Shown piece by piece: positions 29,406 to 58,622 of a stretch of 64,000 bases of DNA (position 1 is its first letter; each line of letters begins with the position of its first letter). The stretch comes from an uncultured virus (IMG/VR IMGVR_UViG_3300030107_004098). Taxonomy: Duplodnaviria > Heunggongvirae > Uroviricota > Caudoviricetes. The translations under genes were made by a program, and so were the position numbers. The DNA lies in the IMG/VR virus record IMGVR_UViG_3300030107_004098; one strand, given 5' to 3'. The notes under the pieces were generated by a model. That model worked only from the letters and a program-made list of their open reading frames with translations, did not search any database and had not been told where the DNA came from.

Positions 29406-30005
29406 ATGTGGAAAGATATTCTAAAAGCACCACCGTTTAGATTATATGATAGAAAAGGCGGTAAATCTTTAATTAGATTAAAGGATGTAGACGTTTTATA
29501 TTCTGGTGGTAAAAAAGGCGACAAACCTAGTGGTTTTTGGACTCCAGATTTACAGATGGCTTTTCAGTATGCTTTGTATGGGGATATACTAAATACCCAA
29601 CCAAGATTAGGAGAGCCAGTAATATTTGAGGCTAGAGATTTTAGTATGATTCCAATGTATAGAGAAATTGAAACAGATTATGGGTTTTTAGATTTTAGAA
29701 GATACAAAAAATTAAACTATAAAACCATTGAAGGTCCAGAATTAGCAAGGTTTATTAAAAATAATGACGATGATTTTGCATATGTTTTTAATCAAGAAAT
29801 TTCCGGAGTATCTATGGGAGAAGTAATTCAACTTTTGGAAGAGGACGACCCTACGGCTAGCAGATATTTCTTTGGACCTAGAGAAACTAGCGAATATCAA
29901 AACATTAGAAGTCATCAAATGAAACGGCTATCAAGAGATAGGTATAAAGATTTAATAGGTACTCGCGCAATTAACGATTACGACGTAAGGCGGGATAAAC
30001 AATGA
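29406..30005 (+). CDS. tagged protein, possible ADP-ribosyltransferase-like fold
   Basis: MWKDILK tag; LYSGG..GFWTPDLQMAFQYA. Confidence 0.6.
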   Translation: MWKDILKAPPFRLYDRKGGKSLIRLKDVDVLYSGGKKGDKPSGFWTPDLQMAFQYALYGDILNTQPRLGEPVIFEARDFSMIPMYREIETDYGFLDFRRYKKLNYKTIEGPELARFIKNNDDDFAYVFNQEISGVSMGEVIQLLEEDDPTASRYFFGPRETSEYQNIRSHQMKRLSRDRYKDLIGTRAINDYDVRRDKQ

Positions 30006-30463
30006 GTTGGATGGATATTTTAAAACGGGAAGAATTTATTGGACCTATGACTCAAGACAGCGCAATAGAGTTATGGAATAACAACGAAGATAACCCACGA
30101 TATGAAAGAAGAGATGGCGCATACCCTCTTACAGATTGGTTCTTAAGAGTAATAGATGGTAAAGTTGTTGGTATTCAAGGATTTAAGGATTTTGGCGATT
30201 ATGCTTTTGTTGGTGGAACTAATAGCGAAGCAAAAGGCGGAATTGCAGCATTTGAAGAATACCGTAAAAATTACTTGGGAACCAAACCAAAGGTTGCCGG
30301 ATTTAAACCAAAAAGAGGCGAAGTAGAAAAATATGTAGCATATCTAAAAAGTAAAGAATGGACAATAAACCCAGATGAATTTGAAGATGTTCCCGCAGAA
30401 GTAATAGAGGAATTTAAAAATAACTACGGCGGCAATTGGGGCATCAAAAAAATGAGGTTATAA
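30002..30463 (+). CDS. tagged GNAT-like protein
   Basis: MSWMDILK; DGKVVGIQGFKDFGDYAFVGG resembles the GNAT at 36472. Confidence 0.6.
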   Translation: MSWMDILKREEFIGPMTQDSAIELWNNNEDNPRYERRDGAYPLTDWFLRVIDGKVVGIQGFKDFGDYAFVGGTNSEAKGGIAAFEEYRKNYLGTKPKVAGFKPKRGEVEKYVAYLKSKEWTINPDEFEDVPAEVIEEFKNNYGGNWGIKKMRL

Positions 30464-30464
30464 T

Positions 30465-31046
30465 ATGTGGCGTGATATTCTTAAAGCCCCAATTTGGAAT
30501 ATACATCAAAAGGTAAACATTACTCCCGACATGAGAATTTCTGCTTCTACAACTGACTGGGATGAAAAAGAATGGGTACAGTATTATAAATCAAAATATT
30601 GGCCTAACGAAAAACCTCAAGGTTTGTGGTATGCATTAGGTAGTGATTGGATAGATTGGTTAGAAGGCGAAATGCCTCTTGCGTCTAACAAGTATAACTA
30701 TGTTTATGAAATACACTTGACCGGAAATATTTTAAAATTAAAAACTAAACAAGACCATATAGATTTTTATAATAAATACGCTGAAGATGCTGTAGGTACT
30801 AGATATACTTATAATAGAAAAAAAATTAACTGGAAAAGAGTCGCAAGCGAATATGACGGAATAGAAGTAATGGGTAAAGATTTTCATTATGATTCATTGG
30901 ATGATAAAAGTTTAGAATGGTTAAGTGGTTGGGATGTTAACGGTGGTGTTATTTGGAATCTTAGTGCTTTTAGACAGGGAAAACTATTATTTAGTAGAGA
31001 CGACAAACTATGGGAAACCGCAACTGCTGAAGAGTATTATTGGTGA
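30465..31046 (+). CDS. tagged protein, possible ART-like fold
   Basis: MWRDILK; KPQGLWY..YVYEI..YDGIE..VIWN. Confidence 0.6.
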   Translation: MWRDILKAPIWNIHQKVNITPDMRISASTTDWDEKEWVQYYKSKYWPNEKPQGLWYALGSDWIDWLEGEMPLASNKYNYVYEIHLTGNILKLKTKQDHIDFYNKYAEDAVGTRYTYNRKKINWKRVASEYDGIEVMGKDFHYDSLDDKSLEWLSGWDVNGGVIWNLSAFRQGKLLFSRDDKLWETATAEEYYW

Positions 31047-31051
31047 TTATT

Positions 31052-31342
31052 ATGAGTTGGAAAGATATACTAAAAGAAAGAGAAAGGTTGCCTGATTATA
31101 CATTAACTAAAGAACAAATGGTAGATTTTCATAAAAGATTTACAAGAGAAATATTACCTAAGTTATCCGGTGAAAAAGAAGAAGACGCGGGAATGTGGTT
31201 ATATTGGTTAAGCAAAGCAATCAAAAACAAAGACACAGGTTTGGGTCGTTTATTTGTTTCAAATGAATATATTATTGCTCAACTACAAGACATTATGGAC
31301 ACCGTAATATCAGAAAGGGATTCATTTAGAGGAATGGAGTGA
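31052..31342 (+). CDS. tagged hypothetical protein
   Basis: MSWKDILK after GGTGA. Confidence 0.7.
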   Translation: MSWKDILKERERLPDYTLTKEQMVDFHKRFTREILPKLSGEKEEDAGMWLYWLSKAIKNKDTGLGRLFVSNEYIIAQLQDIMDTVISERDSFRGME

Positions 31343-31346
31343 TACA

Positions 31347-31655
31347 ATGGTTTGGGAAAATATTATCAAGTCGGCTTTTCAAGTTAAGACAAATTTTCCT
31401 GAAGCAGATTTTTGGCTAATTAGAGTTCATGATAGAGAAACAGTAGGTAAGCCGGTAAAAGAATTTAAACCACAGTATATTGGTATTAAGATTTTAGCAA
31501 CGGACAAATTCGATGCAGGGTATATGTTTTATTGGTTTATGAACCTACATCAAAATATGCGATACTGGCAGCAAGTTTCTTATTCTTCTGATGGGCGTAA
31601 TAGTATTAGAGTCAGTGATGTTAAAGATTTAGTAAAAAGGATAGTGACGGAATAA
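31347..31655 (+). CDS. tagged hypothetical protein
   Basis: MVWENIIK; ADFWLIR..VGKP. Confidence 0.7.
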   Translation: MVWENIIKSAFQVKTNFPEADFWLIRVHDRETVGKPVKEFKPQYIGIKILATDKFDAGYMFYWFMNLHQNMRYWQQVSYSSDGRNSIRVSDVKDLVKRIVTE

Positions 31656-32452
31656 TGTGGTGGAACATTCTTAAGGTAGCAGGTAAAGAACGTTCAAGAT
31701 TTTTTAGAGGAATTAACATTCCCAAAGAAATAGGTAACATGCGCCCAATACAAACAAGAATCAGACCAAATGTAATTCTTTCAAGACACGCAATACAAAG
31801 AATGCAAGGCAAAGACGTTAGTAGAGAAACCGATACAGGTGTTAGAGCCGGAGAAACAATGTATAGAGATTTAGAAGGAGTGTGGTATTTTGAAGGGGCT
31901 ATGGATGCAATCCAAGAAGGAATAGAATCGGGTAGATTTAATTCTTTACTATCAGATAAATATGGTAAAAAAGGTCAAGCAGTAGTTAGGCTCGCCAGTG
32001 TAGGTCACGGAAGAATGGGTTGGGGAGTAAAAAAACATAGAGATTTAGATGATACATTAATAGTTACTACATATTTAGATTATAGAGGTTTACCACAAGG
32101 AGCCGGGGCTAACACGATTTCCTTTAATAATATTTCTACTCCCCTACATCCTATTAATCCACCCCGTATGCAATCAGAATCATGGGTTAATCTTAGAAGA
32201 AGGGCATATCAAACCCGTACTCGACCCACCCCACAAACTGAAACCTTTAAAGAAAAAGTTACTACAGAAGCAGTTAAAATTCCAGAGTTTGAAGAAAAAT
32301 ATTTAGAGCAATTATTTTCCGAACCCACTCCAACAAATACTTTAGAGTTAAGAAGTAAATTAAATCCGTGGCAAAATAAATCACAGGGTTCAAAACGAGA
32401 TAGATTCTTTATTAAATTACTATACAATGCACAAACAAAGTGGGAGTTCTAA
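31655..32452 (+). CDS. tagged protein with possible RelE/BECR-like RNase motif
   Basis: MWWNILK; LSRHAIQRM...LIVTTY. Confidence 0.6.
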   Translation: MWWNILKVAGKERSRFFRGINIPKEIGNMRPIQTRIRPNVILSRHAIQRMQGKDVSRETDTGVRAGETMYRDLEGVWYFEGAMDAIQEGIESGRFNSLLSDKYGKKGQAVVRLASVGHGRMGWGVKKHRDLDDTLIVTTYLDYRGLPQGAGANTISFNNISTPLHPINPPRMQSESWVNLRRRAYQTRTRPTPQTETFKEKVTTEAVKIPEFEEKYLEQLFSEPTPTNTLELRSKLNPWQNKSQGSKRDRFFIKLLYNAQTKWEF

Positions 32453-33024
32453 TGTGGTGGGATATAATCAAATCAAAATGGATGGGCCAAATGTCCGACG
32501 ATAAAAAAGAATTACTCGAACATAAACCTAAAGTTAAAATTGATATTCCCAAAATGTCTTACCCCGACGGCAGCAAAGAAGTCAAAGAAGTAATCAAGGT
32601 AATGAAAGAAAAACCAGTGCCTAAAGATATTATGGACAAACACGATAAAGATTCCGACCAAGTATTATTTGATATAGTGGATGCAAAAAGTTCTGATTAT
32701 GAAGATTTTACAAAAGACGTTAACTCGTACGTAATGCGAGAGAAAGTAAAATATGCAAGACAAAGACCAAATGAAGTTTCTGATATTGTAGAAAGTAAAA
32801 CAGAAACAGATGATACTCCGGCTTTTCCTTCGGGTCACGCAACTTTAGTTTATGCTTTAGAAAAAATGTTATCCAACAAATACCCAGAAAAGAAAAAGGA
32901 ATTAAATAAAACTGCAGAAATGTTAGCATTAGCCCGTGTTCAGTTAGGTTCTCATTATCCTTCGGACATAAAAGCCGGAAAGAAACTAGGTTATCTTATA
33001 GCAAAGAAATATTTAAAAGATTAG
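32452..33024 (+). CDS. tagged PAP2-family phosphatase
   Basis: MWWDIIK; K..RQRP, FPSGHA, RVQLGSHYPSD. Confidence 0.85.
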   Translation: MWWDIIKSKWMGQMSDDKKELLEHKPKVKIDIPKMSYPDGSKEVKEVIKVMKEKPVPKDIMDKHDKDSDQVLFDIVDAKSSDYEDFTKDVNSYVMREKVKYARQRPNEVSDIVESKTETDDTPAFPSGHATLVYALEKMLSNKYPEKKKELNKTAEMLALARVQLGSHYPSDIKAGKKLGYLIAKKYLKD

Positions 33025-33068: not shown

Positions 33069-34625
33069 ATGTCCGAAGATATAGATGACTTAGTAGAAAA
33101 GGCAAAAGTCCTTGCAGAAGCAACCGGTAGAGATGAAGCCGATGTATTGGCTGATTTAATGGATGATGGTGTATTAAACGATTCACATAAAGAAACCGAA
33201 AAAACAGATTTAGTAACACAGTTAAAGGAGGCCGCAGAACTAATTAATACTGTTCAGGCTATTAACCAAGAAGTCGCAGAAAACAAAGTGCTTAACGGTA
33301 ACGGTAATTCTACTAACGTAGAAATTGATACCACACTAGAGGGCGATATTGTAGACAGGGCTATTGAATCCGTTCAACGTAAAGCAGAAAATATTAAAAA
33401 AATTGTTATTCTTGTTGCTCCCTTATTCTTATTAGTGGGAGGTGGTGGGTCTTTAGAAATGTTTGGTATAACTGACTTTGTTGGTGACGATGAGCCTGAT
33501 GATGATTATTACCCCGACGATACTTTTTATGAGATTTGGGGATGCACTGATTACGAAGCAGATAATTACGATGAATATGCTAACATGGATGACGGTTCTT
33601 GTTCTTATCCTGTATATGGTTGTATGAATAACGCTGCACCAAATTATAATCCCGAAGCAACAGTAGAAGATGGTTCGTGTACTCGCGGTGGTTGTACTGA
33701 CCCCGAAGCAGAAAACTATGATGATAATGCTAACGAAGATGACGGTAGTTGCGAATATTATGTAGAACCTATTTATGGTTGTACTGATTCAGAAGCAAAT
33801 AACTATCAATCAGAAGCAGAAGAAGATGACGGTTCATGCACTTATGACCCTGAACCTGTTTATGGTTGTATGGATGATAGCGCAAATAATTATAATTCAG
33901 ATGCTACCGTAGATGATGAGTCATGCGAATATGACCCAGAATTAGAATGCGAAGTAGAAATTACTAATCACTATAGAGGTCATGTTCAATCAGATGAAGA
34001 ACAAGATGCAATATTAATTGCCTTTAGAATTGTTCCAACAGATTGTGATGATGAGGTTTTAGAAATAGACATAGATATGCACCCACCCGGAGAAGATGAC
34101 GAAGTAGATTATACTTACTATGTAGAAGTTAACGGTAGTGAACCAACAGATGTTTCTTATACTTTTGATAATGTAGCAGTAGGTGTTTGGGTTCCAAGAA
34201 TTACTGCGGCAATTGACGATGAACCAATAGAAAGAATTTGGATGTGGTCAATCGAAGTAGTAGAGCAGGTTTGTGAAATTAATTTGTTCGGTATTAATTT
34301 TGGAACAAACAATACTTCTGCTGTTGTTATTTATGACCTTGATTGTGGTGACGAGGAAAATAATTTAGACGGATATAACGTATCTGTGCAGTTTCTTGTG
34401 TATTCTGTAAATTCGACAAACAATACTAATCCTCCAATTGAATACAATACCACAACACATTATATTCAGGGTTATGCAGATGACCCACGTATGCTTAGAT
34501 TGAGTAATTTTACTGATGGTAATACTACTCACTATGACTTTTATTGGTATGTTACTTGGGAAGATGCAGACGGCGAAGTGCAATACATTGAGCGCACTTG
34601 GTTAAATAGAGAATTGGCTCCGTGA
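33069..34625 (+). CDS. membrane-anchored acidic protein with five GC(T/M)xxxAxNY...D(G/E)SC repeats
   Basis: Single TM (IVILVAPLFLLV), 5 Cys repeats, NxT/S-rich beta C-terminus. Confidence 0.8.
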   Translation: MSEDIDDLVEKAKVLAEATGRDEADVLADLMDDGVLNDSHKETEKTDLVTQLKEAAELINTVQAINQEVAENKVLNGNGNSTNVEIDTTLEGDIVDRAIESVQRKAENIKKIVILVAPLFLLVGGGGSLEMFGITDFVGDDEPDDDYYPDDTFYEIWGCTDYEADNYDEYANMDDGSCSYPVYGCMNNAAPNYNPEATVEDGSCTRGGCTDPEAENYDDNANEDDGSCEYYVEPIYGCTDSEANNYQSEAEEDDGSCTYDPEPVYGCMDDSANNYNSDATVDDESCEYDPELECEVEITNHYRGHVQSDEEQDAILIAFRIVPTDCDDEVLEIDIDMHPPGEDDEVDYTYYVEVNGSEPTDVSYTFDNVAVGVWVPRITAAIDDEPIERIWMWSIEVVEQVCEINLFGINFGTNNTSAVVIYDLDCGDEENNLDGYNVSVQFLVYSVNSTNNTNPPIEYNTTTHYIQGYADDPRMLRLSNFTDGNTTHYDFYWYVTWEDADGEVQYIERTWLNRELAP

Positions 34626-34630
34626 TTATT

Positions 34631-34978
34631 ATGACTTGGTTTAGTATTTTAAAGACCGACTATAGGTATTCTCCAAGTATGGCGGAACTAGAACTAAAAG
34701 TAAATCAAATAACACATGACTTTAGAAAAGAATATGAATCATTTATAGAATCCACTGACCCTCAACGTATTAATGAATTACTTTCTGGTGTAGATTTACA
34801 AATAGATTTAATAGAAAAAACTTTTAATTCCAAAACTCCCAATTTGAAAAAGGTAATACTAGTATTTAGAAACCTTAAAATACTATTTAAGAATAATGTA
34901 CCAAAAGACGGAGACGATATATACAATAGGTATATGCAAAGGGTCACACAAGCCTATAGAGAATACAACAGGAGTTAA
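34631..34978 (+). CDS. tagged hypothetical protein
   Basis: MTWFSILK. Confidence 0.7.
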   Translation: MTWFSILKTDYRYSPSMAELELKVNQITHDFRKEYESFIESTDPQRINELLSGVDLQIDLIEKTFNSKTPNLKKVILVFRNLKILFKNNVPKDGDDIYNRYMQRVTQAYREYNRS

Positions 34979-34983
34979 ATAAA

Positions 34984-35562
34984 ATGAGTTGGTTTGATAT
35001 AATTAAAAGATTACCGGCATTCGCTAGACGAGATAAACATAGTGAAGAACAATATTATAGCCCCGATAAGCATTACGCTAAAGAACGCTATAACCCAACA
35101 GATACTAAAACAGCACAACCACCCACAACTTATAGAAGTTTAGTAGGTGGAGAATATAGAGATGTAGAAAGACAACCTAGAGTAAGAATGGCGAACTCAA
35201 CAGAATATAGAGATGTAAGAAAACCCGGAGGTAGGGGTGAACGTGCAGATTATAGACCTGATAGGTTTCCTAGTCATCGAGAAAGAGATTTTAAAAATCT
35301 AGAAATGATTAAACATTATAATAGAGTTGATACGAGCATACCCAGAATGAAATATGCTATAACAAACATATTACTAACACCTGAGTATTCACTAAAAATA
35401 CGTCGTTATCAAGACGGGTATGATGTATCAAATGTTCCCTTTCCTACTTTTGAGGAAGTTAAAAACAAGATGCAACTTATGGGTATTGAGTTAGATGATA
35501 CAACTCGGTTTATGCGGGAGTATGATAATCTTAAAAATTATTGGGGGGAGTATTTTAAATGA
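34984..35562 (+). CDS. tagged hypothetical protein
   Basis: MSWFDIIK. Confidence 0.7.
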   Translation: MSWFDIIKRLPAFARRDKHSEEQYYSPDKHYAKERYNPTDTKTAQPPTTYRSLVGGEYRDVERQPRVRMANSTEYRDVRKPGGRGERADYRPDRFPSHRERDFKNLEMIKHYNRVDTSIPRMKYAITNILLTPEYSLKIRRYQDGYDVSNVPFPTFEEVKNKMQLMGIELDDTTRFMREYDNLKNYWGEYFK

Positions 35563-35837
35563 GTTGGAAATCAATACTAAAACAGGTGGGCCAGCCTAGA
35601 TGGATGATAGAAACAGGTGCGCCGGGAACAATGAAAACTCGTCTTCATAGAATGATGCAAGAAAATGAAAACTACAATGATAAGTTTCCTACCTTTGATG
35701 AATATTTAGATAGACAATATCAAGGAACTCTAGAAGAAATAAAGACACGTTTGAAAAACAACTTTAAAGAAGGGACATTTGAAAGAATGGAACAATATTA
35801 TAAAGATTTAGAACATGCGTGGAGAAATTCACTATGA
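35559..35837 (+). CDS. tagged hypothetical protein
   Basis: MSWKSILK. Confidence 0.7.
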   Translation: MSWKSILKQVGQPRWMIETGAPGTMKTRLHRMMQENENYNDKFPTFDEYLDRQYQGTLEEIKTRLKNNFKEGTFERMEQYYKDLEHAWRNSL

Positions 35838-36121: not shown

Positions 36122-36140
36122 TAATATTAGTTGGAAACAA

Positions 36141-36470: not shown

Positions 36471-36471
36471 T

Positions 36472-36906: not shown

Positions 36907-36911
36907 TTAGT

Positions 36912-37718
36912 ATGTCTTGGTTTAATATTATAAAAGATGATGAGGATTTTGACCAATTAACCGAAGAACAAGTAGAAGAGTTGACCGAATTATTTAATAC
37001 AATAGTAGAAAGGGTACGTCAACGAGAAAGAGAGGAAATGTTTGGTCCGGAACCTGAACCTTTTATTGCAAATGAACGATTAGCAAGAATAATGGCTACA
37101 TACTTGGTTCGACTTCGTATGGAGGTTGAAGAAATACGGAGTAAAAATTTAGGTCTAGAAACTCATATGTTTAGTTATTATTATCCAGAACTAACTTTTC
37201 GTGCATTAGAAACGATAGATGATTTATTAGACGAATTACAGGCGGCAAATTTATTGGAAGAATTTCAAGAGAGTCACGACGGAATAATTCCAGATGTTCA
37301 TGCCCTCATGAATGAAATAATTAATACTGTGGCCGATACTGATTTGGGTGCAGGGTATATTTATTATGACCCCCAAGAACTATACGATAGCCTAATGAGG
37401 AAATCTTCTTGGTTTGATACTATTAAAGGTATAGACACCGCAACACGTAGCGCAGAATTATGGGTATTAAACGAAGAAGCCATATACAACATGGCTATGG
37501 GGTTTATTACTAATTCAATACGTGGAACCAACACATCACTAGAAGAAGCAATACAAGAATTAGCCCAATACTTATCTGAAATAATGCCCACCAGTCAAGG
37601 TTTTATGGATGAATTAGTAGACATGCAACCTTCAGATGGATTATCAGATGTTGATTGGGAAGAAGTAGCAAGAAATTTCACAGAAGAAATAAAAGAAGAA
37701 ATGGAAGCATACAGATAA
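36912..37718 (+). CDS. tagged acidic protein with internal second tag
   Basis: MSWFNIIK and internal SSWFDTIK. Confidence 0.7.
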   Translation: MSWFNIIKDDEDFDQLTEEQVEELTELFNTIVERVRQREREEMFGPEPEPFIANERLARIMATYLVRLRMEVEEIRSKNLGLETHMFSYYYPELTFRALETIDDLLDELQAANLLEEFQESHDGIIPDVHALMNEIINTVADTDLGAGYIYYDPQELYDSLMRKSSWFDTIKGIDTATRSAELWVLNEEAIYNMAMGFITNSIRGTNTSLEEAIQELAQYLSEIMPTSQGFMDELVDMQPSDGLSDVDWEEVARNFTEEIKEEMEAYR

Positions 37719-39793: not shown

Positions 39794-40063
39794 ATGTCTT
39801 GGGAAGATATTGTTAAAAGAAAAAAGATGCAACCTTTGTACAAAAAATTAATTGATGATGTAGTACAAGGGTTAGATAGTCCTGCGTCTGCACAAGAAAT
39901 ATATTCAATAATACGTGATAGATTTGAAGAGATGCGCTACTCTGGCCCTAGAGTTTTATCTGGAAGGTTTTTTCCAGAAATAGGTGCTGTTAGACAATAT
40001 CTTAAAGTTAATTACAAACCTACAGGTAGCGCAAAAAATGTACATTTATATGGTGGTAAATAA
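39794..40063 (+). CDS. tagged winged-HTH-like protein
   Basis: MSWEDIVK; SAQEIY..FFPEIGAVRQYLK. Confidence 0.65.
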   Translation: MSWEDIVKRKKMQPLYKKLIDDVVQGLDSPASAQEIYSIIRDRFEEMRYSGPRVLSGRFFPEIGAVRQYLKVNYKPTGSAKNVHLYGGK

Positions 40064-41482: not shown

Positions 41483-41493
41483 AGGTGTTTACA

Positions 41494-41832: not shown

Positions 41833-41846
41833 TAGGAGAGATTACA

Positions 41847-44026: not shown

Positions 44027-45955
44027 ATGGATTGGTGGGAAGAGTTATTAATTCGGGAAAATAGTACACCCGGAGCGATAGCAAGAGCCAAACCAAAACC
44101 TAACGAGGAACCGGGCCGAAAAATGTTCGATAATCAATTGATTAGCCTAGCAGAAGTACTTTCTAATACAGAAAAAGAAATTCAAGAAGATAGAAGAATC
44201 AGTAATACTAACATCAGACAAAAAATAGAATCCGGACAATTAGATAAAGAAAATATTCCTAGAATCGCTCAAGCCCTAAAAGATAAATTACAAAACTTAT
44301 CTAAAGTTATTATGATAAATGAGTTAAGAGAAGGTATTGAAAAATTAGCGAAGGACCCTAGAACTATAAGTGAACTAGCACCTATTCTTGACGAAGGGTA
44401 TAGAACATTAAAAACTGGTAATGAACGAAGAGAATTTATAGATATGATTCAACCTTACTTAACTCTAGGTGTGGATAGAGAAGAATTAATGGATTCTATA
44501 TTCGCGCTAATGAAAAAAGGTGGGATGGATTATTCTACTTATATAAATGATATAATAACAATTGCACCGAAAATTAACCGCAAGGATATTATGGAACACG
44601 GAAAATCTAAACAAGAAGAAGAATTACCTCCTACAAAATTACAAAGAGAATACGAAACAGTCCCATATAATAATTTTGTGGAAGTTATTAAAAGTAACCA
44701 CACAGATTTAGAAAAATTTAAAAAGTTAGTGCAAAACGTATACACTGCTTGGGGTTTAAGAGATACTCCATTTAAATTTTATATCGAAGAAAGAGTAAGT
44801 GGTGGTGAATACGGTACGCCTAACGTAGATAGACCAATACCGGAAGAAACAACAGTCGCTTCTCCATTGTATATATTATATAAAATTATAAAACATATGC
44901 CCACAAGTAATATTTTTTCCACATCTAATTATGGCGCTTTGTTAGGAAGAAGAGAACACGTTACTAAAAAACGAGTAAACATGATGGGATTCTTTGCTCA
45001 AGACCGTGTAAAAAGAAAAGGTGGAGATATTCAAGAAACTATAGAAAATGTTAAGTTACCAAGAACCGCATCCGGTAGTTTAAGAAATGAATTTGATAAA
45101 TGGATGGCTAAAGATACTAAATTTAGTAGTGGTGACTACGCAAAAGAAAGTACAGCCGGTGACTTAGGACTTATGATAAAAGAGTTATTTCCTGCTTCTA
45201 TTGATTTACGGGCCATATATGTTATGGCCTTTCCTAAACAAGCAGGGGTAAACCTAGCAGATACTGTAAAGCAAAATATTGAAGAATTTCCTACAATTAC
45301 AGAAACTTCTACACCTATAGATTTATTCTCGGCTTATGTTCATGTTATAGATAGTTTTAATGAGAGTGCAGTAGGCCCTTTATTAGAAAAATTAAATGAA
45401 ATAACTAGAGAGTTAATACTACTAAGATATTATGATGAAATAGAAGAAGAAGAAGAAGAAGTTCTAATAGAACAAGACGATGGTTCATACGAAATTGACT
45501 CATTTGCTTTAGAGCAAGTTGACCAATCAAAGGTTATTTCTGCCGTCGACGACTTTAATAAGGAGTTAAGGAAAGCAATATTACAAACAGGTGAAACCAT
45601 AACACGGACTCTTTATGATATGATTAAAGATAATCTCAATAGGCCCGGAATAGGAAAATATAGTTTAACTCGTTCTGCAAAAACTACAGAAAGAAAGCCA
45701 CATGAAAAACAAACAGAAGAAGATATTGCTAGAATAAAAGAACGAGAATCTAAAAGAACTGTTATCGGCTATGGGGAAGGTGGTGAATTAACAACAGAAA
45801 TTGGGAGAGCGCCACGCGAAAGAATCCGAGACATAAAAGGACATAAAGAAAAAGATAAAGGAACTATTCAAGAATATCTACAACGTTACGCATATGCAGG
45901 AAAAGATTTTGACGAAACCCAAAAACTTATTGATTACAAATTTGGAAGTGACTAA
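44027..45955 (+). CDS. large helical hypothetical protein
   Basis: 642 aa ORF; GGTGA RBS; weak tag MDWWEELLIR. Confidence 0.75.
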   Translation: MDWWEELLIRENSTPGAIARAKPKPNEEPGRKMFDNQLISLAEVLSNTEKEIQEDRRISNTNIRQKIESGQLDKENIPRIAQALKDKLQNLSKVIMINELREGIEKLAKDPRTISELAPILDEGYRTLKTGNERREFIDMIQPYLTLGVDREELMDSIFALMKKGGMDYSTYINDIITIAPKINRKDIMEHGKSKQEEELPPTKLQREYETVPYNNFVEVIKSNHTDLEKFKKLVQNVYTAWGLRDTPFKFYIEERVSGGEYGTPNVDRPIPEETTVASPLYILYKIIKHMPTSNIFSTSNYGALLGRREHVTKKRVNMMGFFAQDRVKRKGGDIQETIENVKLPRTASGSLRNEFDKWMAKDTKFSSGDYAKESTAGDLGLMIKELFPASIDLRAIYVMAFPKQAGVNLADTVKQNIEEFPTITETSTPIDLFSAYVHVIDSFNESAVGPLLEKLNEITRELILLRYYDEIEEEEEEVLIEQDDGSYEIDSFALEQVDQSKVISAVDDFNKELRKAILQTGETITRTLYDMIKDNLNRPGIGKYSLTRSAKTTERKPHEKQTEEDIARIKERESKRTVIGYGEGGELTTEIGRAPRERIRDIKGHKEKDKGTIQEYLQRYAYAGKDFDETQKLIDYKFGSD

Positions 45956-52390: not shown

Positions 52391-54022
52391 ATGGGAGTAA
52401 GAGATAGAATAAGTAATTTAATCAGGAGAAGAACACCAACTCCTGTAGAAAAGGAAGTATTTAATTTAGGTATTCAAGAACAGAAACACCCACAACATAT
52501 TTTGGGTCCGGTTATATACAACGTAGCAGACCAATCTGTTGTTGTTAGAACATGTATTACACAACTTAAGACAGAAATCTTTCGTAGAGGATATATGTGG
52601 GAAAAGGCTTTTTATAAAAAATGCGTAGCATGTGGTGAAGAATACCAATCAGAAGTAGATGAATGTTCATCTTGTGGTAGTTTTGATTTTAGGGGTCCAG
52701 ACCCTATGCAGAAAAAATATGCAGAAAAAATGGTAAATGGGTATGTAAATAAGTCAGACCAATTATTTGTTGATGTATTAAAAGAAATTGAGCGTGACTT
52801 AAATATTGCTGACGACGCATATCTTATATTTGTAAAAGAATATTATGTAGATGAGTTAGGTAACATTAAACTACATAAGGTAAAAGAACTATATCGAGGT
52901 GACCCACTCACTATGTATATTGATGTAGATGAAGATGGGGATAGAGGAACGGCGCATTATACTTGTGTTACTCACAGAGATGTATATACAGAAGACCCTT
53001 ACGAACAATGTCCTGAATGTAATGCTTCACTACACCCCGTTGTATATACTAATAGAGTTCACGGTAAAGAACAGTATTACATTGATGGGGAAGTAGTTCA
53101 CATGAGTAAGTTTAGTCCAAGTAGGTTATACGGCACTTCTCCAATTATTACTTTGTGGAGCCATATTACTACTTTGATTGCTATGGAGAATTATATTAAT
53201 ACTTCATATAGTAAGGCTAGAACACCAAAAGGTATCTTAGCAGTTCAAACAAATAACATGGATTCTCTAATTAGATACTGGAGAGGTGTTAAAGAGAAGT
53301 TAGAAAAGGACCCACACTATATTCCTATTATGGGGATTGAAACAGAAGCCGGTGGAAGGGGTGATGTTAAGTGGGTTCCGTTTATGCAAAGCCTAAAAGA
53401 AATGGACTATACAGCAGTTAAGGATGATTTACGAACACGTATTGGTGCTTTCTATGGTATATCACCTATTTTTCAGGCAGATAATACAGCAGGTGGTGGA
53501 TTAAATAACGAAGGATTACAGATTACTGTTACTAACAGAACAGTAGAATTAGCACAAAGCGTATACAATAAATACGTGTTTCCTTTTATGGAGAAGCAAT
53601 TTGGTATAACTGATTGGAAAATTAGATTATTACGTTCCGAAGAAGAGGACGATACTGCTGCACTAAGGCGACGTGAAACAGAAGTTAATATTGCTGGACA
53701 AATGAAGAACTTAGGATTTGATGTAGATATGGATGAAGACGGTAACTTTGTATTTAAGAAATTAGTTAAACCGGATGAAGCCCTACAACAAGCACAGGCA
53801 GAAGGTGGACAAATAGCAAATGACCCATATGCAGGAACAGATATTGATGCTAGATACTTAGGACAAATGCAAGCAGATATGATGCAACAGGCAAAACAAC
53901 CTATACAAACAGAAGGTAGAGGAAATAAAAGTAGTACCGCTTTACAGTTAGATAACAGAAATACAGGTTCTCCAGCAGGAACAGCAAATCAAAACGTAGA
54001 TAGGAGAACTGAAACGCGATGA
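52391..54022 (+). CDS. portal protein with zinc-finger insertions
   Basis: HK97-like EVVH..YGTSPI, FYGISP; position after TerL. Confidence 0.88.
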   Translation: MGVRDRISNLIRRRTPTPVEKEVFNLGIQEQKHPQHILGPVIYNVADQSVVVRTCITQLKTEIFRRGYMWEKAFYKKCVACGEEYQSEVDECSSCGSFDFRGPDPMQKKYAEKMVNGYVNKSDQLFVDVLKEIERDLNIADDAYLIFVKEYYVDELGNIKLHKVKELYRGDPLTMYIDVDEDGDRGTAHYTCVTHRDVYTEDPYEQCPECNASLHPVVYTNRVHGKEQYYIDGEVVHMSKFSPSRLYGTSPIITLWSHITTLIAMENYINTSYSKARTPKGILAVQTNNMDSLIRYWRGVKEKLEKDPHYIPIMGIETEAGGRGDVKWVPFMQSLKEMDYTAVKDDLRTRIGAFYGISPIFQADNTAGGGLNNEGLQITVTNRTVELAQSVYNKYVFPFMEKQFGITDWKIRLLRSEEEDDTAALRRRETEVNIAGQMKNLGFDVDMDEDGNFVFKKLVKPDEALQQAQAEGGQIANDPYAGTDIDARYLGQMQADMMQQAKQPIQTEGRGNKSSTALQLDNRNTGSPAGTANQNVDRRTETR

Positions 54023-54177
54023 ACTGGAAAGATATTCTTAAAGCGGATTTTAAGAGATTAGATGATATTGCTTTAAGGAGTTTATATGATAATATACGAA
54101 GTTATCCCGGAAGAAAGGACACAAAGTTTATTATGGAAATAGAACAAGAAATGAAACAAAGAGGCATGGAAATATGA
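54019..54177 (+). CDS. tagged small protein (52 aa)
   Basis: Read manually: MNWKDILKADFKRLDD... Confidence 0.7.
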   Translation: MNWKDILKADFKRLDDIALRSLYDNIRSYPGRKDTKFIMEIEQEMKQRGMEI

Positions 54178-54392
54178 CTGATATGATTAAAAGAAAATTA
54201 AATGATATGAAACAACAATTAAGCAAACTTGAGAGCAAAGTAAATGCTCCCGAACCCGTTCAGAAAACAACAACTAATATGGTTCCCGCAGGTGTTGGTG
54301 AAGCAACAGAACCTAAGCGAGAAGCAGAACCCGGCGCTCCCGGTTTTATTACTGGTGGGCCTAAAATGAGCAAAAAAATGAAAGAAGTTTAA
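54174..54392 (+). CDS. hypothetical protein
   Basis: Coupled ORF. Confidence 0.65.
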   Translation: MTDMIKRKLNDMKQQLSKLESKVNAPEPVQKTTTNMVPAGVGEATEPKREAEPGAPGFITGGPKMSKKMKEV

Positions 54393-54401
54393 GGTGATTA
54401 A

Positions 54402-57400
54402 ATGAGTTGGTCTAATATTCTTTTAAAGGAAATACCCCCTTCTGTATATGAAGAGGCTCTAAGAGATTCTGGTATTTCCGCTACAAGGAAAAAGGAACTA
54501 CAAAATAAGTTAAATAAATTAATAGAAGATAATTTTATTGGGAATCTAAATTTGTTTCCCAAACAAAACCCTTTTATTAAATATAAAATAGCACAAGATT
54601 TACCCGGAGTTATTGCTAGCATATTAGAAACTTATGAAAGTTTAGGTAAACCCGGAATTAAAAGAGAAAGAATACCTGTCCTCGACAAAAAAACAAAGAA
54701 GCAAAAAAGGGATAAAGATGGTAGGCTCATGTGGGAAATGCAGGGGTTTGGACAATATAAAATTGAGACAACAAAGATTAAACCCATCCCAGTAGCAAAA
54801 AGATTTGATTTAATACTTGCTCAATTAGAATATGCTATAGAAGCAGTATTAGGAAGATTAGGAATAGATTATCAACCTTCTATGTCTATAGCAGAAGTAG
54901 ATAAACTTATTACAGATATTGGTCTAACGGATGAAGGAATCGCTGATGCAGAAAGTAAACTTGAACGTATTTTACAGAATACTGTTGATTTATCTAATAA
55001 AATGCCTAAAAAGCCGGAAGCAGAACAACGTGAACTTCTTGAAGGTGAAGATATTCCCAGTAGGGAACCAATAGACCCATCAATTAAAGCAAAACTCGAT
55101 TTTATTAGTATACATAAAGCACTTGAAGACATTTTTAAAAGTAGTGTAACAACAAAAAAACAAGACACTCAACTTACTTCAGCAGCAACAGACCTTTTTG
55201 GGAAGATAATTGTAAAGCAGGTAGCGTTATTGCAGGAATTATCAGGTATTGACCTAAAGAATAAACGCGACACACCACAAATTAGTAAACCTCCAATTTA
55301 CAGTATAAGTCAAAAATTTAAAAATGTAACCCAGAGAGATAAAATATTATTTAGTTCAGTAGATTACTTTTTTAAAGAATTGGCTAAAAAGAAACATGAG
55401 GGTGGAGAAATTCACGCAAAGTATAGAGAATTAATAGAAGGATTAAATGTATCTATGTATAATATTTTGGTAGCAATATATGAAATAGAATATGGTGATA
55501 CTAGAGTTGTTAATTTTCCGGTCTTATTAGGTAGAAAATATACAGCACTTATTGAAAAACCTGTACCTAAATTTACTTTTACATTGGGTGGTAAAGAATA
55601 TGATTACAGTGCTGAATCTGCTAAAGAACTTCGACAAATATATCTAGATGAGCGACAATATTTTATTGCTGACGCACTTGCAGACGGTATTATAGAACTT
55701 GCAGTAGAAGAAATAAAACTACGTGAAGTTATTTCAGAAGAAGAAATGAAACATAAAAATAAAACATCTCAACTGCGACAACGCATTAAATTAGAAAAAG
55801 ATAGAGAAAGGAAAAAGGAACTGGCTCATGAATTTAAATATATTGTTGATGAATACAAAAGAGGTAAGAAACAACGAAATAAACAACTAAAAGAAATTAC
55901 TGATACTGGCTATGGAGGAATAACAGGAAAACCAATAGATATAGATACTATTTCTAATCAGGGTCAAATAGTTCGTCGTGTTAGAGATTCAATATCTAAG
56001 CCAGAAACAGAACAAGCGAAAAAATTATACGAAGAAAGCGAAAAACGAAGTAAACAGTTTCAAGACGTTTTAGACAAAATTACTGAAGCGCACGAAAGAT
56101 ATAAATCAAGGGAACAAGAAAAAACATCTGCTAAAGAATTAACTGGCGTATTATCTGATGAACTTGGTAATTTAGGAAATATTACAATTTCTTCTGATGT
56201 GGGTAAAAATATAACTTTAGAAGAGGGAGATAAGGCTAATAGAAAAGAGATGGCTGACCTATTATACGATACAATGGAAGAATTAAATGTTAAAATAGTT
56301 CCTGTTATGGGTAAAGAAGAAGAAGAACTGGCTAAAAAAATTAAAGGAACACGATTACCTAAGCGAGCAAGAAAAACTGCTCCTGCTCGATATAAGAAAT
56401 TAACAGAGAAAAAACAAAAAGAGTTTAATAAACTACTAACTTCTTTCTTAGAAACTGGACCTCTTACTCCAGAAGAAACACAAAAACTAAGAGAAGAATT
56501 AATAGACCCAAAAACTAGAGTAAACACTAAGCCCAAATTATTATCCCAAGAAGAATTTAAGGTAACTGCTGAACAGATAAAAGAGGCACAGAAAGCAATA
56601 AAAGAAGGTAAACCGGAATTACTCTCTCCAGAAGAAATACGTAAACTTAAAAATAAAATAAAATCACACTATCAAGGGTTAGTGCTTTTAGGTGCAGCAG
56701 GTGAAAAGAAAAGAAAGAAAGAATCACAACGACTTATACATGGTAAGGGACCCAAAGAAGGACAACCCTATACTGATGAAGAAATGGAGGCTGTACGTGC
56801 CCGTAATTTAAAAGATAGAAATGACCCAATGCGAGAAGTAAGAGAAAGAATAGAAGAAGAGAAAAAGAAAAATGCAAAAGAAACAGGTATGTACGAAACA
56901 GATGCTCAAAGAGAACAAAGAGAAAAAATTAATGAAAGAATTAAATCCGGAAAATGGGAAAGCGGATTTTATTCCTCCGAACATCCCTTTCCTTTAGCGA
57001 CTCGCGCCCCAGATTGGGCTTATGGACAAGCCAAAGAAACAAAAAAGGCATTAGACACGTTATTAACTGAATTAGGAGTCACGTCCGATACAATTGTTAA
57101 AGAAGACACAAGTATGATTCTAACTGAACTAAACAAGAAAGACAAACGATTAGTAAAAACACTATTACAACTAGCACACCCAACAGAATACTTTAACGAA
57201 GACGTTCTCAAACTAGGAGAACTTATTACAGTATTAAAGTCCCTCGGTGTTGTTAATGAAAATAAGGGGCTAAAAAAGCGCATCCTTAAATACGAGGATG
57301 AGAATCTAATGGTAGTTAAGCGGGCAGTAAAACTGCGCCGTGAATATGAAAAACTATATAAATCAATTAGAGAAGTAATCTACCCAAAGACAGGTGACGA

Positions 57401-57410
57401 CAATGAGTGA
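54402..57410 (+). CDS. large tagged Lys/Glu-rich coiled-coil protein (possible internal head protein)
   Basis: MSWSNILLK; 1002 aa; in head module. Confidence 0.75.
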   Translation: MSWSNILLKEIPPSVYEEALRDSGISATRKKELQNKLNKLIEDNFIGNLNLFPKQNPFIKYKIAQDLPGVIASILETYESLGKPGIKRERIPVLDKKTKKQKRDKDGRLMWEMQGFGQYKIETTKIKPIPVAKRFDLILAQLEYAIEAVLGRLGIDYQPSMSIAEVDKLITDIGLTDEGIADAESKLERILQNTVDLSNKMPKKPEAEQRELLEGEDIPSREPIDPSIKAKLDFISIHKALEDIFKSSVTTKKQDTQLTSAATDLFGKIIVKQVALLQELSGIDLKNKRDTPQISKPPIYSISQKFKNVTQRDKILFSSVDYFFKELAKKKHEGGEIHAKYRELIEGLNVSMYNILVAIYEIEYGDTRVVNFPVLLGRKYTALIEKPVPKFTFTLGGKEYDYSAESAKELRQIYLDERQYFIADALADGIIELAVEEIKLREVISEEEMKHKNKTSQLRQRIKLEKDRERKKELAHEFKYIVDEYKRGKKQRNKQLKEITDTGYGGITGKPIDIDTISNQGQIVRRVRDSISKPETEQAKKLYEESEKRSKQFQDVLDKITEAHERYKSREQEKTSAKELTGVLSDELGNLGNITISSDVGKNITLEEGDKANRKEMADLLYDTMEELNVKIVPVMGKEEEELAKKIKGTRLPKRARKTAPARYKKLTEKKQKEFNKLLTSFLETGPLTPEETQKLREELIDPKTRVNTKPKLLSQEEFKVTAEQIKEAQKAIKEGKPELLSPEEIRKLKNKIKSHYQGLVLLGAAGEKKRKKESQRLIHGKGPKEGQPYTDEEMEAVRARNLKDRNDPMREVRERIEEEKKKNAKETGMYETDAQREQREKINERIKSGKWESGFYSSEHPFPLATRAPDWAYGQAKETKKALDTLLTELGVTSDTIVKEDTSMILTELNKKDKRLVKTLLQLAHPTEYFNEDVLKLGELITVLKSLGVVNENKGLKKRILKYEDENLMVVKRAVKLRREYEKLYKSIREVIYPKTGDDNE

Positions 57411-57636
57411 AGACAACGACTTACAATTATTACTAAAAGAATTAGTTGACCGCGTTAAGAGTTTAGAAGCGATGGTCTATTCCACGGATAATATCCTTAT
57501 GAAATCAGGTCTAGTTAAGACCGAAACACAAACTCCTTTTATTCAGACAGGTAGTGCATTACCCGATGCAGATATGATTGCTAAAATGGATTGGACCGAA
57601 CTGGATGATATGGTAAAGAAAATTAATGGTGAATAA
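57403..57636 (+). CDS. hypothetical head-module protein
   Basis: GGTGA RBS; C-terminus resembles protease tail. Confidence 0.65.
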   Translation: MSEDNDLQLLLKELVDRVKSLEAMVYSTDNILMKSGLVKTETQTPFIQTGSALPDADMIAKMDWTELDDMVKKINGE

Positions 57637-58243
57637 TATGGATTATAACAACTTAGGTGAAAATGAAAATTTAAGCGCACATAGGGCGGAACAAAGTGAT
57701 GCTGAAAAGAAAGTATCTATGGCTCTATCACAATTAAGAGATTTAACGACATTGATTAGTAATCATTTAGGAAGTCCTGTAGACCCTGATGAACACGCAG
57801 AAGATGTAAAAGTTAACAAACCAAAATCTAAAAAAGTAGATGTGTTTGGAGTACAATTTGATGATGGACCATTAGGCCCACGTTCTATTCCTCGTGGTGC
57901 TGCAAAACCAAATAAGCCACAAACAATGAAAAAGGCTTTTGGGGATAAAGAACTCGATAGAGATTTAACTGGACAAAAATATGTTAAGCGTGGTGCAGAT
58001 AGAGAACCTATGGATGATGAAGCCGGACCTATGGATAGAGGACAGGAATTAGGTGAAGGTAAACCTTCGGTAAAAGAAACTTTACCTCAAATGGCTGCTT
58101 CGTTTAAAGCGATAGCACAACAAGTACAATCAGTTAATAAACTTCTAGGTAAATTAGTAGAGCAAGAAGCATCAACAGAAGTTTCAGCAAAGGTAGCCAA
58201 TAGACCTGCAGATGACGATAAACCAACAGAAGAACTATACTAG
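57626..58243 (+). CDS. hypothetical head-module protein
   Basis: ORF in operon. Confidence 0.7.
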   Translation: MVNNMDYNNLGENENLSAHRAEQSDAEKKVSMALSQLRDLTTLISNHLGSPVDPDEHAEDVKVNKPKSKKVDVFGVQFDDGPLGPRSIPRGAAKPNKPQTMKKAFGDKELDRDLTGQKYVKRGADREPMDDEAGPMDRGQELGEGKPSVKETLPQMAASFKAIAQQVQSVNKLLGKLVEQEASTEVSAKVANRPADDDKPTEELY

Positions 58244-58253
58244 GTGGTTTAAT

Positions 58254-58622
58254 GTGGATTGGAAAATTATTCTAAAGAGAAAATTATCTAATTCTGAACA
58301 TGCAAACGTTATAAGTATTCTCTTAGAAGATTTAAAACAAGATGGAATAACATTAGAAAACGCAGGTATTCAATGGTCTGAATTTGTTATAGGTGATGAT
58401 TTTACATTTCCTAAAAATTATAGAGTAGAACTAGAAGGACATTCTGCTATCTTTTATTTAGATTTTACATTCCCTAATATGAATCCTACGATTAGACATA
58501 TTAGCGGCGACAAAGATTTAACAGATTTAATACGTGAATATCTCTCTACTGAACAAGATTTAATAAATAGAATGATACGTGCTATATCAAAAGATACCAC
58601 AGGAGATGTTGCATATGGGTAA
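58254..58622 (+). CDS. tagged hypothetical protein
   Basis: GTG start after AGGTGG: MDWKIILKR. Confidence 0.65.
   Translation: MDWKIILKRKLSNSEHANVISILLEDLKQDGITLENAGIQWSEFVIGDDFTFPKNYRVELEGHSAIFYLDFTFPNMNPTIRHISGDKDLTDLIREYLSTEQDLINRMIRAISKDTTGDVAYG

Follow-up and report, generated by a model that had tools for sequence, protein, structure and literature searches.

By the account of T4 in PMC9026906, the internal proteins of this phage, which are variable, carry a capsid-targeting sequence of 10 residues that is cut off by the prohead protease. In P1 the packaging signal of DarB consists of its first 30 residues, and the Dar cargo counters host defence (PMC9024508). Encapsulin targeting peptides bind to the shell interior, and in the engineered system of P22 virus-like particles cargo enters via the coat-binding part of the scaffold, both as outlined in PMC8939255. 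For SPN3US, trimming of numerous head proteins by the prohead protease has been described. Among marine viruses, the magroviruses are tailed viruses that have been attributed to archaea of Marine Group II / Poseidoniales, and are characterised in PMC5434244 as marine, about 100 kb in size, and equipped with a head module resembling the one of haloarchaeal tailed viruses and with a replication module of their own that has a family B DNA polymerase.

The window analysed here, a stretch of 64,000 nucleotides, appears to belong to a marine archaeal-type tailed virus. PolB and RNR are encoded, as are two proteins with an ATP-dependent ligase domain, one on the replication arm and one in the head module. 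The capsid protein is closest to haloarchaeal virus capsid proteins, with 26% identity. Complete relatives measure 92-96 kb, and the sequencing runs containing this stretch are marine or estuarine. The halovirus-like capsid, PolB, the size of the relatives and the marine origin agree with the magroviruses, compared by description as far as the account in PMC5434244 goes.

An earlier note on this DNA had proposed that 25 open reading frames (ORFs) share an N-terminal tag, and this was borne out for every one of them (Table 1). All 25 begin with a start codon (24 ATG, one GTG at 58254) and with the consensus M-x(0-2)-W-x-[D/N]-[I/V]-[L/I]-K or something close to it. The strict pattern W..[ILVM][ILVM]K is satisfied by 22 of them, the other three being 38089 (WENYLK), 41494 (WQNTINK, weak), and 54402 (WSNILLK). 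One more ORF with a tag variant, W-x-x-L-L-I-R, was found at 44027-45955, and its family has W-x-x-[LV]-[LI]-(I)-R at the N-termini. About one quarter of the genes of the head-building arm open with the tag. On the + strand seven tagged ORFs follow in succession from 29406 to 33024, four lie from 34631 to 36121, and seven from 40722 to 43810 with one untagged membrane ORF among them. A six-frame scan of the window with the strict pattern yielded 33 matches, 22 of which are at most three codons from the start of a + strand ORF between 29.4 and 58.3 kb, and none begins a real ORF on the - strand arm. Of the DNA pattern ATGNNNTGGNNNNNNATHNTNAAR the window contains 15 copies, compared to 0.03 expected copies from 100 dinucleotide-preserving shuffles, none of which reached 15.

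Table 1. Tagged ORFs of the window and features of the adjoining head module.
Position	Strand	Feature	Evidence
29406-30005	+	tagged ORF	N-terminus read
30002-30463	+	tagged ORF	N-terminus read
30465-31046	+	tagged ORF	N-terminus read
31052-31342	+	tagged ORF	N-terminus read
31347-31655	+	tagged ORF	N-terminus read
31655-32452	+	tagged ORF	N-terminus read
32452-33024	+	tagged soluble PAP2-like protein	Pfam E 3.6e-10, 40.1 bits vs cut-off 27.2
34631-34978	+	tagged ORF	N-terminus read
34984-35562	+	tagged ORF	N-terminus read
35559-35837	+	tagged ORF	N-terminus read
35834-36121	+	tagged ORF, basic, DUF5754-like	N-terminus read, profile search
36912..37718	+	tagged 268-aa fusion of two once-separate tagged genes	homologue comparison
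37931-38092	+	tagged small ORF, weak Zn-ribbon matches below cut-off	
38089-38343	+	tagged small ORF, variant WENYLK	variant kept in homologues
39794..40063	+	tagged 89-aa ORF	N-terminus read
40722-40907	+	tagged ORF	N-terminus read
40907-41482	+	tagged ORF	N-terminus read
41494-41832	+	tagged ORF, weak variant	N-terminus read
41847-42395	+	tagged ORF	N-terminus read
42392-42577	+	tagged ORF	N-terminus read
42584-42952	+	tagged ORF	N-terminus read
42985-43338	+	untagged two-helix membrane ORF amid tagged ORFs	helix prediction
43331-43810	+	tagged ORF	N-terminus read
44027..45955	+	642-aa ORF, variant tag MDWWEELLIRE	homologues' N-termini
49581-51011	+	large terminase, untagged	head-module context
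50986-52389	+	HNH-like ORF, untagged	head-module context
52391-54022	+	portal, untagged	head-module context
54019..54177	+	tagged 52-aa ORF, directly after portal gene	N-terminus read
54402..57410	+	1002-aa head-module ORF, tag variant MSWSNILLK	N-terminus read
57394..57636	+	80-aa head-module protein	motif counts in homologues
58254..58622	+	tagged 122-aa ORF, GTG start (VDWKIILK)	kept in relatives
60738..61985	+	S78 prohead protease with helical acidic scaffold-like C-terminal half	Pfam Peptidase_S78 E 9.9e-13
61991..63289	+	major capsid protein, HK97-type by family match	phrog_24667 E 7.5e-26

What follows the lysine, which the earlier note had called mostly unrelated, is unrelated from protein to protein: BLASTP among the 25 tagged proteins with the first 10 residues trimmed gave no pair at E <= 0.01. 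The tag is thus a short N-terminal peptide common to otherwise unrelated proteins of one virus. The domain labels given to these proteins fared less uniformly. The PAP2 label stands, this being the only tagged protein of the window above the Pfam cut-off, and no membrane helix is predicted for it. The GNAT-like and wHTH-like labels fall on untagged ORFs with matches below cut-off, the Zn ribbon of 37931-38092 stays below cut-off as well, and the ART-like label of the 1002-aa protein was not upheld, as this protein has no match in Pfam, PDB sequences or Atlas.

A sequence resembling the tag recurs at the other end of two head proteins. The protease at 60738..61985 scores 49.0 bits against the Peptidase_S78 profile, with a curated cut-off of 21, and is fused to a scaffold-like extension, residues 280-415 of which are long helices in the predicted model (pLDDT 70-85). 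H71 and S127, which we take to be the catalytic residues, are invariant in 46 sequences. About 12-15 residues before its C-terminus this protein has the tag-like sequence ELSWEEVN; the motif [M/L]-x-W-x-[D/E]-[I/V] is found near the C-terminus in 45 of the 46 protease-scaffolds, with W403 invariant. The 80-aa head protein contains MDWTELDD at residues 65-72, near its C-terminus, and 24 of 26 homologues have the same motif 12-15 residues from the end. Internal matches to [ML].W.[DEN][IVL] are rare, 16 in the 140,950 residues of five genomes. Five of these are the C-termini of the protease-scaffold and another five those of the 80-aa head protein, each in all five genomes. Compared by sequence, the tag resembles the C-terminal motif of the scaffold.

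The C-terminal part of a scaffold normally grips the interior of the capsid shell. From the shared eight-residue peptide and its likeness to the scaffold C-terminus it therefore appears most likely that the tag addresses a sizeable and rapidly changing set of soluble proteins into the head. A cargo-loading tag which mimics the scaffold and is possibly clipped after its lysine is the reading to which we assign a probability of roughly 0.55. The eight N-terminal residues would serve as a portable address peptide, loading accessory proteins that are soluble, fast-evolving, and otherwise unrelated into the capsid during its assembly, by imitating the C-terminal motif of the protease-scaffold and the small head protein. 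The initiator methionine would be part of the motif, which would be the reason for finding the tryptophan at position 3 in about 90% of the tags. The [I/L]-[L/I]-K end is the probable cut site of the S78 prohead protease, so that the cargo would be freed inside the head, and it would exit with the DNA at infection.

The positions of the tagged genes were compared in the window and four complete genomes. All 96 tagged ORFs are on the structural strand, upstream of the terminase or between portal and protease, in keeping with the proposal that only this strand bears tags and that some of them lie within the head operon. None of the 96 comes after the capsid gene, and the replication arm of the five genomes has no tagged ORF. 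Membrane proteins had been said to lack the tag, and indeed a membrane helix is predicted for 0 of the 96 tagged as against 63 of 577 untagged ORFs, the latter set including spurious ORFs because genes were called by a simple ORF caller. Membrane ORFs within the tagged cluster are likewise untagged. The cluster starts immediately after a divergent strand switch and also contains untagged regulators and membrane proteins, observations which speak against the loading reading. Early genes often lie beside such a switch. The tag might accordingly be a short linear motif which docks early or host-takeover proteins on one cytoplasmic hub, which may be a host factor or else a chaperone or regulator encoded by the virus, and the tagged proteins would then never enter the virion. 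Such a role would suit proteins that are small, evolve fast, and mostly lack known domains, with wHTH-like and other non-structural ORFs among them. It is nevertheless unlikely, as it has to contend with the same motif being conserved near the C-termini of the scaffold and a second head protein, with tagged genes between portal and protease and a replication arm without tags, and with a motif that stays at chance level in cellular genomes.

Loci of related viruses were retrieved by means of the most frequent DNA version of the tag. The 153 viral loci, several of which overlap, yielded 501 tagged ORFs, and these amount to 414 unique tagged proteins in relatives. Clustering of 410 tagged ORFs gave 232 clusters, 164 of them singletons, and only 5 of 150 family representatives have a Pfam match at 1e-4. 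Comparison of homologues showed gain and loss of the tag inside single families and decay of internal relics following gene fusion. The fusion protein at 36912..37718 has such a decayed internal tag, SSWFDTIK, near residue 165, and its C-terminal half has matches in two loci (L075 and L040) to tagged proteins that are encoded on their own. In the 52-aa protein after the portal gene the tag is invariant in 7/7 homologues, and homologues of the 1002-aa protein begin with MSWQLILK, MSWENVIK or MGWENIVK. Outside the clade, distant homologues of the DUF5754-like protein are without the tag; eight distant homologues of one tagged protein lack it. In cellular genomes the pattern stays at chance level: 90 of 120 matches do not begin an ORF and a single locus has two tags, compared to 82 of 138 viral loci with two or more. 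The related halovirus HVTV-1 has none among 122 ORFs. As far as these sequences reach, the tag is peculiar to this clade of viruses. With so few Pfam matches, the roles in host takeover or anti-defence named in the earlier note are guesses.

A large number of the tagged proteins are strongly basic or strongly acidic. This would fit proteins entering the procapsid as co-scaffolds, core proteins or DNA-condensing proteins, which are then degraded or retained and not delivered. The likeness of the tag to the scaffold C-terminus points the same way, and the small head protein with its C-terminal motif looks like a mini-scaffold. The extreme turnover and the paralogue expansions seen among the tagged proteins are, however, what one expects of arms-race genes and rarely sees in assembly parts, which makes this explanation rather improbable.

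Cleavage at the ILK end is proposed because the same tripeptide occurs close to where the capsid protein begins and on either edge of the protease domain. In the capsid protein, for which the predicted model has a mean pLDDT of 36.0, a conserved L-L-K follows a variable Gly-rich linker at residues 25-27. The site [ILV][ILVM]K is present here in 47/47 sequences with variable flanks and an invariant K27, and in 14/14 further homologues. It matches the end of the tag only, because no tryptophan precedes it. The protease has [FL]-x-[IV]-[LI]-K at residues 18-22 and F-D-I-V-K at residues 172-176, the end of its domain, with [ILV][ILVM]K at 20-22 and 174-176 in 46/46 sequences. A third invariant site, VVIK (residues 103-105), is inside the protease core, and the distant HVTV-1 protease has the similar strands PVFKS and KFGVVSK at corresponding places; the conservation at both protease edges may be structural. 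The 80-aa head protein contains LLLK near its N-terminus, where [ILV][ILVM]K is found in 25 of 26 homologues. The recurrence of the ILK end at likely protease sites, together with a tag that is N-terminal, short, exposed, and followed by a polar linker, would also be expected of a degradation or turnover signal read by the prohead or a host protease and limiting the lifetime of accessory proteins. We hold this to be very improbable: it leaves the scaffold likeness and the head-proximal restriction unexplained, and we know of no archaeal N-degron of this form.

Selection on the tag acts at the protein and not at the DNA level. In the fifth tag codon (n=25) the first base varies (A8/C11/G2/T4) and the second is T in 25/25, and usage of I, L, and K codons inside the tag is that of the gene bulk. 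The tryptophan has no phenylalanine or tyrosine as substitute: ahead of the aliphatic pair there is a tryptophan in 95 cases and a tyrosine in one. A nucleic-acid or translation feature, either an initiation enhancer or a cassette recombination boundary with a peptide devoid of any role, would account for the +4 base preference at codon 2 (ANT in most tags, AGT in 29 of 34 Ser codons there vs 26% in gene bodies) and merits hardly any credence, as the preference for A at +4 is shared by untagged genes, synonymous variation at the W, I/V, L/I, and K positions follows bulk codon use with changes only among aliphatic residues, and internal copies decay after fusion. The 15 residues after the tag are less hydrophobic (p 5e-9) and more charged (p 0.002) than the remainder of the protein in 287 proteins, indicating that a polar linker follows. 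On an ideal helix the methionine at W-2 and the tryptophan at 0 are on different sides, a counterpoint to the loading reading.

The comparison with the T4 capsid-targeting sequence drawn in the earlier note holds for the modular design, the protein-level selection, the head-proximal structural arm, the restriction to soluble proteins, and the fact that tail and replication genes go without the tag. That the tag binds and loads, and that cleavage and delivery follow, we infer. If it is a loading signal, sequence alone would label which "dark matter" genes are virion cargo in very abundant uncultured marine viruses, and the opening minutes of an infection in uncultured archaea could be studied. 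A portable capsid address of the T4 style would have arisen independently, with an HK97-type protease; it would imitate the motif by which the scaffold itself binds the shell, and would extend to 15-25 genes in each genome and over 200 families. To our knowledge no portable address at such a scale has been described for any tailed virus, and 15-25 cargo species per genome, of up to 1002 aa, are far more than any described tailed virus of this size known to us packages, which counts against the loading reading. The tag could also become a short natural means to put foreign proteins into HK97-type shells. A more far-reaching version, that any soluble protein gaining a copy of the scaffold motif is packed, trimmed, and injected, with 15-25 fast-turnover effectors per virion from hundreds of families and an evolutionary bridge from viral scaffolds to the targeting peptides of encapsulins, is put forward tentatively, at somewhat less than even odds. 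No description of the motif was found in the literature on capsid targeting sequences, shared phage N-terminal motifs or magroviruses, where a motif is not searchable by meaning.

Among the known systems, the giant phages SPN3US and phiKZ are described as having long propeptides on their ejection proteins and not one shared eight-residue tag. The P22 particles resemble the proposed mechanism in loading via the coat-binding part of the scaffold, and differ in being a laboratory design. Encapsulin peptides, as outlined in PMC8939255, are short, bear aliphatic residues, bind the inner face of an HK97-fold shell, and can be transferred to other proteins. They are usually C-terminal, their shells are without DNA and take up one or few cargo types, and the likeness to the tag lies in the proposed role. 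A DNA-free nanocompartment of the encapsulin type was rejected for the present locus, as terminase, portal, and protease are present. In P1 the N-terminal signal of DarB suffices for a heterologous protein to enter the head (PMC9024508), but it spans about 30 residues, is not a motif common to many proteins, and loading proceeds through a stepwise chain of dedicated Dar proteins. The differences from T4 are that the tag belongs to an archaeal-type virus known from its sequence, that it copies a scaffold C-terminal motif, that 15-25 instead of about 5 genes per genome are tagged, and that the candidate site ends in Lys instead of L/I-x-E and the protease is of family S78 (HK97 type) instead of the gp21 type. 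A gp21-type protease with L/I-x-E specificity was rejected on account of the Peptidase_S78 match (E 9.9e-13) and the lysine at the end of the tag. As the T4 system (IPI-III, Alt; gp21) is summarised in PMC9026906, both share an N-terminal peptide of about 10 residues common to otherwise unrelated proteins, the recurrence of the cleavage consensus, here of candidate sites, within the capsid protein and close to the ends of the protease, and cargo genes that vary between relatives.

The shared N-terminal peptide M-x-W-x-[D/N]-[I/V]-[L/I]-K, here called the tag, is confirmed and is stronger than first stated. The earlier note had placed it at the starts of 25 open reading frames (ORFs), and each of these positions is indeed a start codon, with the motif or a close variant behind it. 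Those at 38089, 41494 and 54402 are variants which do not fit the strict pattern W..[ILVM][ILVM]K, the one at 41494 being weak, and an additional ORF at 44027-45955 carries a family-specific variant with arginine at the end. A six-frame scan of the window yielded 33 matches to the strict pattern, 22 of them at most three codons from the start of an ORF on the + strand, in the region 29.4-58.3 kb. The DNA form ATGNNNTGGNNNNNNATHNTNAAR is present in 15 copies versus 0.03 expected, a number reached in none of 100 shuffles. The tagged proteins are, as had been claimed, mutually unrelated: after a ten-residue trim no pair among the 25 matched at E <= 0.01.

The window consists of two divergent arms (see table). 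Among named viruses, haloarchaeal tailed viruses have the capsid proteins nearest to that of the window (26% identity). Complete relatives in IMG/VR measure 92-96 kb, and two of these genomes have terminal repeats. The DNA sequencing runs containing the stretch are marine or estuarine, and no RNA run was found among the sequencing runs listed. These features agree with the published magrovirus description (PMC5434244), and it is from this match that we infer the magrovirus label and the host. An IMG/VR record of 184.7 kb listed there as 100% complete (G005) was ruled out as a distinct larger virus; its capsid gene and its protease gene each occur twice, some 91 kb apart, so that it consists of two related genome copies joined.

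Main features of the window, and location of the split polymerase in the complete relatives G003, G004 and G006 (L280 and L281 are related viral loci)
Feature	Genome	Coordinates	Strand	Content or location
Replication arm (- strand)	window	1 to ~28.6 kb	-	family B DNA polymerase, PD-(D/E)XK nuclease, ATP-dependent DNA ligase, ThiF-like protein, class II ribonucleotide reductase
+ strand arm	window	from ~28.9 kb	+	small-gene cluster, then head module
Large terminase	window	49581-51011	+	head module
Portal	window	52391-54022	+	head module
S78 prohead protease	window	60738-61985	+	head module
Major capsid protein	window	61991-63289	+	head module
Split family B polymerase (L280/L281)	G004	34252-37407
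Split family B polymerase	G003	53792-57285
Split family B polymerase	G006	71795-75235

The family B polymerase is a single ORF in the window (817 aa) and in the complete relative G002 (800 aa), and is split into ORFs of ~550 and ~300 aa, ~0.6-0.9 kb apart, in three complete relatives. The replication arm also contains its own ligase (10626-12131), a ThiF/E1-like gene (13437-14015, Pfam E 1.1e-17) adjoining small ORFs with Zn-ribbon-like cysteine pairs, and three adjacent tRNA genes, Lys(ttt), Glu(ttc) and Leu(taa), at 20515-20768 on the - strand. In the strand-switch region (26340-28820) a promoter-like repeat TTAGAGTATATAAGGAACG with the palindrome GTACCATATGGTA occurs three to five times, preceding small - strand ORFs as well as the first ORF on the + strand, and may act as a common early promoter and operator. 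The 467-aa ORF between terminase and portal (50986-52389) resembles HNH endonucleases in its C-terminal part (phrog_5046, E 5.5e-6); the terminase of the related halovirus HVTV-1 is likewise flanked by HNH genes. A further ATP-dependent DNA ligase domain is encoded within the head module, immediately ahead of the protease, by the gene of a 708-aa protein (58579-60705, Pfam E 4.7e-27), which is found in the same place in all four complete relatives (832-1026 aa).

Tags are retained in relatives found via the portal, and when IMG/VR was scanned for the commonest DNA form of the tag, at least 138 stretches matched. At least 501 ORFs of 30 aa or more carry the tag in the related viral loci L001-L153, at least 414 of them unique. 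These counts reflect breadth and not frequency, the loci having been retrieved by means of the tag and several of them overlapping. After removal of the tag, 410 unique proteins among the loci listed fell into 232 clusters, 164 of which were singletons. Of 205 cluster representatives 70 aa or longer, 150 were scanned, and five of these matched Pfam at 1e-4 (DUF5754, DUF6943, DUF6321, pentapeptide repeats and SUKH_6). The tag has been gained and lost inside individual families. The family of the ORF at 30002 is without it in three other genomes, and a GNAT-like ORF, which the earlier note had counted among the tagged ones, lacks the tag in the window and bears it elsewhere. When the whole library was searched with the tagged 95-aa protein of 35834-36121, 26 relatives were found, of which the close ones are tagged and eight distant ones untagged; one fusion contains a decayed internal tag. 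Similarly, two tagged genes have fused in 36912-37718, where the internal tag copy has decayed. Sequence searches did not confirm the 1002-aa protein as 'ART-like': Pfam gave no family at E <= 0.01, and neither PDB sequences nor the Atlas gave a match.

Runs of four to eight tagged paralogues occur in two complete relatives (locus L278 in G002, 83832-89600, and G004, 87760-89979), with a second conserved stretch past the tag, e.g. NIQISSQRTSSKDYVKPDE...C, and one member enlarged to 806 aa. These runs are a local expansion, typical of arms-race genes. In the window, the tagged PAP2-like protein of 32452-33024 belongs to a family conserved within the clade, has no predicted membrane helix, and keeps all three motifs K..RP, PSGH and R.....H...D, which we take to be the phosphatase signature motifs. 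The neighbouring untagged ORF 33069-34625 of the tagged cluster (518 aa, net charge -102, one weak hydrophobic segment) has repeated cysteine-containing units (..YGC.D..A.NY....DDGSC.Y).

The same DNA pattern was searched in 185,579 cellular genomes and gave at least 120 stretches. Among the 120 listed, the pattern did not stand at the start of a 30-aa ORF in 90, 29 had one tagged ORF and one had two; two or more tagged ORFs are found in 82 of the 138 viral loci listed. HVTV-1, in which only two genes lie between strand switch and terminase, has no tag-type N-terminus among 122 ORFs (86 kb of 102 kb scanned).

The sorting of the tag by strand, position and solubility, suggested from the window, holds across the window and its four complete relatives. 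All 96 tagged ORFs lie on the structural-gene strand, either upstream of the terminase or between portal and protease, i.e. some within the head operon as proposed. The tail genes follow the capsid gene, and none of the 96 is found there. A hydrophobic segment of 19 residues occurs in none of the 96 tagged compared to 63 of 577 untagged ORFs, the latter being an inflated set which includes spurious ORFs from a simple ORF caller; membrane ORFs within the cluster (42985-43338 and 43813-44016) are untagged. In 287 proteins the 15 residues past the tag are less hydrophobic (0.318 versus 0.359) and more charged, compared with the remainder of each protein; a tag joined by a linker would give this composition.

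A possible link to head assembly comes from the protease-scaffold, a fusion of the S78 prohead protease with a scaffold-like C-terminal half. Its C-terminus contains [M/L]-x-W-x-[D/E]-[I/V/L] (ELSWEEVN in the window, EMDWSDIHK in most relatives), with W403 invariant. Away from N-termini this motif has 16 matches in the 140,950 residues of all five genomes, with about eight expected by chance in a rough calculation. Five of them are the protease-scaffold C-termini and five the C-termini of an 80-aa head-module protein (57394-57636 in the window), each in all five genomes; the remaining six are not above chance. Of 46 scaffolds 45 retain the motif, as do 24 of 26 homologues of the 80-aa protein. 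The methionine two residues ahead of the tryptophan in these internal copies corresponds to the initiator methionine of the tags, which would explain why tryptophan occupies position 3 in 456 of 501 tags among the L001-L153 loci listed.

The end of the tag may also have counterparts in the head proteins. Residues 18-22 of the protease-scaffold are [FL]-x-[IV]-[LI]-K and residues 172-176, where the Pfam S78 match ends and a variable linker follows, are F-[DEN]-I-[LVI]-K, both in 46/46 sequences. Past a variable glycine-rich stretch, residues 25-27 of the capsid protein are [ILV][ILVM]K in 47/47 sequences and in 14/14 further homologues. A third invariant site of this type lies in the protease core, and similar strands are found at the two edges of the distant HVTV-1 protease; the protease-edge sites may therefore be structural. 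The predicted models were uninformative, for the protease-scaffold on the burial of these strands (mean pLDDT 47.8, protease domain below 50) and for the capsid protein altogether (mean pLDDT 36.0).

Scaffolding proteins generally hold the coat via their C-terminal part, as in P22 and herpesviruses. A tag copying that part should enter the procapsid together with its protein. We put the probability that the tag is a loading signal for capsid cargo slightly above one half (about 0.55). The HK97 protease cuts its capsid protein after a lysine, and the protease-scaffold of phage P2 trims about 30 residues off its capsid protein. Cleavage after the lysine of the tag is held with somewhat lower confidence than loading, and delivery of the cargo as effectors, as the earlier note had proposed, with lower confidence again.

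Alternatively, the tag might be a docking motif used in the cytoplasm, its role might be confined to assembly, or it might be a degron. A translation or recombination signal is the alternative which the data disfavour most clearly. In the fifth codon of the 25 window tags the first base varies (A8/C11/G2/T4) and the second is always T, a pattern which selection for any aliphatic residue produces. In the 96 tags of the five genomes isoleucine, leucine and lysine codons are used much as in gene bodies, and codon 2, of the form ANT, is the only one with a base preference (serine as AGT in 29/34 versus 26% in gene bodies); A at +4 is favoured in untagged genes too. The tryptophan is strict, N-terminal [ILVM][ILVM][KR] sites having W three residues ahead of the pair 95 times, Y once and F never.

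Capsid targeting is the best available interpretation, for which the likeness to the scaffold is new circumstantial support. If true, the tag would be a capsid-targeting peptide notable for its scale, for scaffold mimicry as its mechanism, and as a system of abundant uncultured marine viruses. The closest described system is the capsid-targeting sequence of T4, a sequence of 10 residues on variable internal proteins which the prohead protease removes (PMC9026906). Further parallels are the P1 DarB signal (PMC9024508) and the targeting peptides of encapsulins (PMC8939255).
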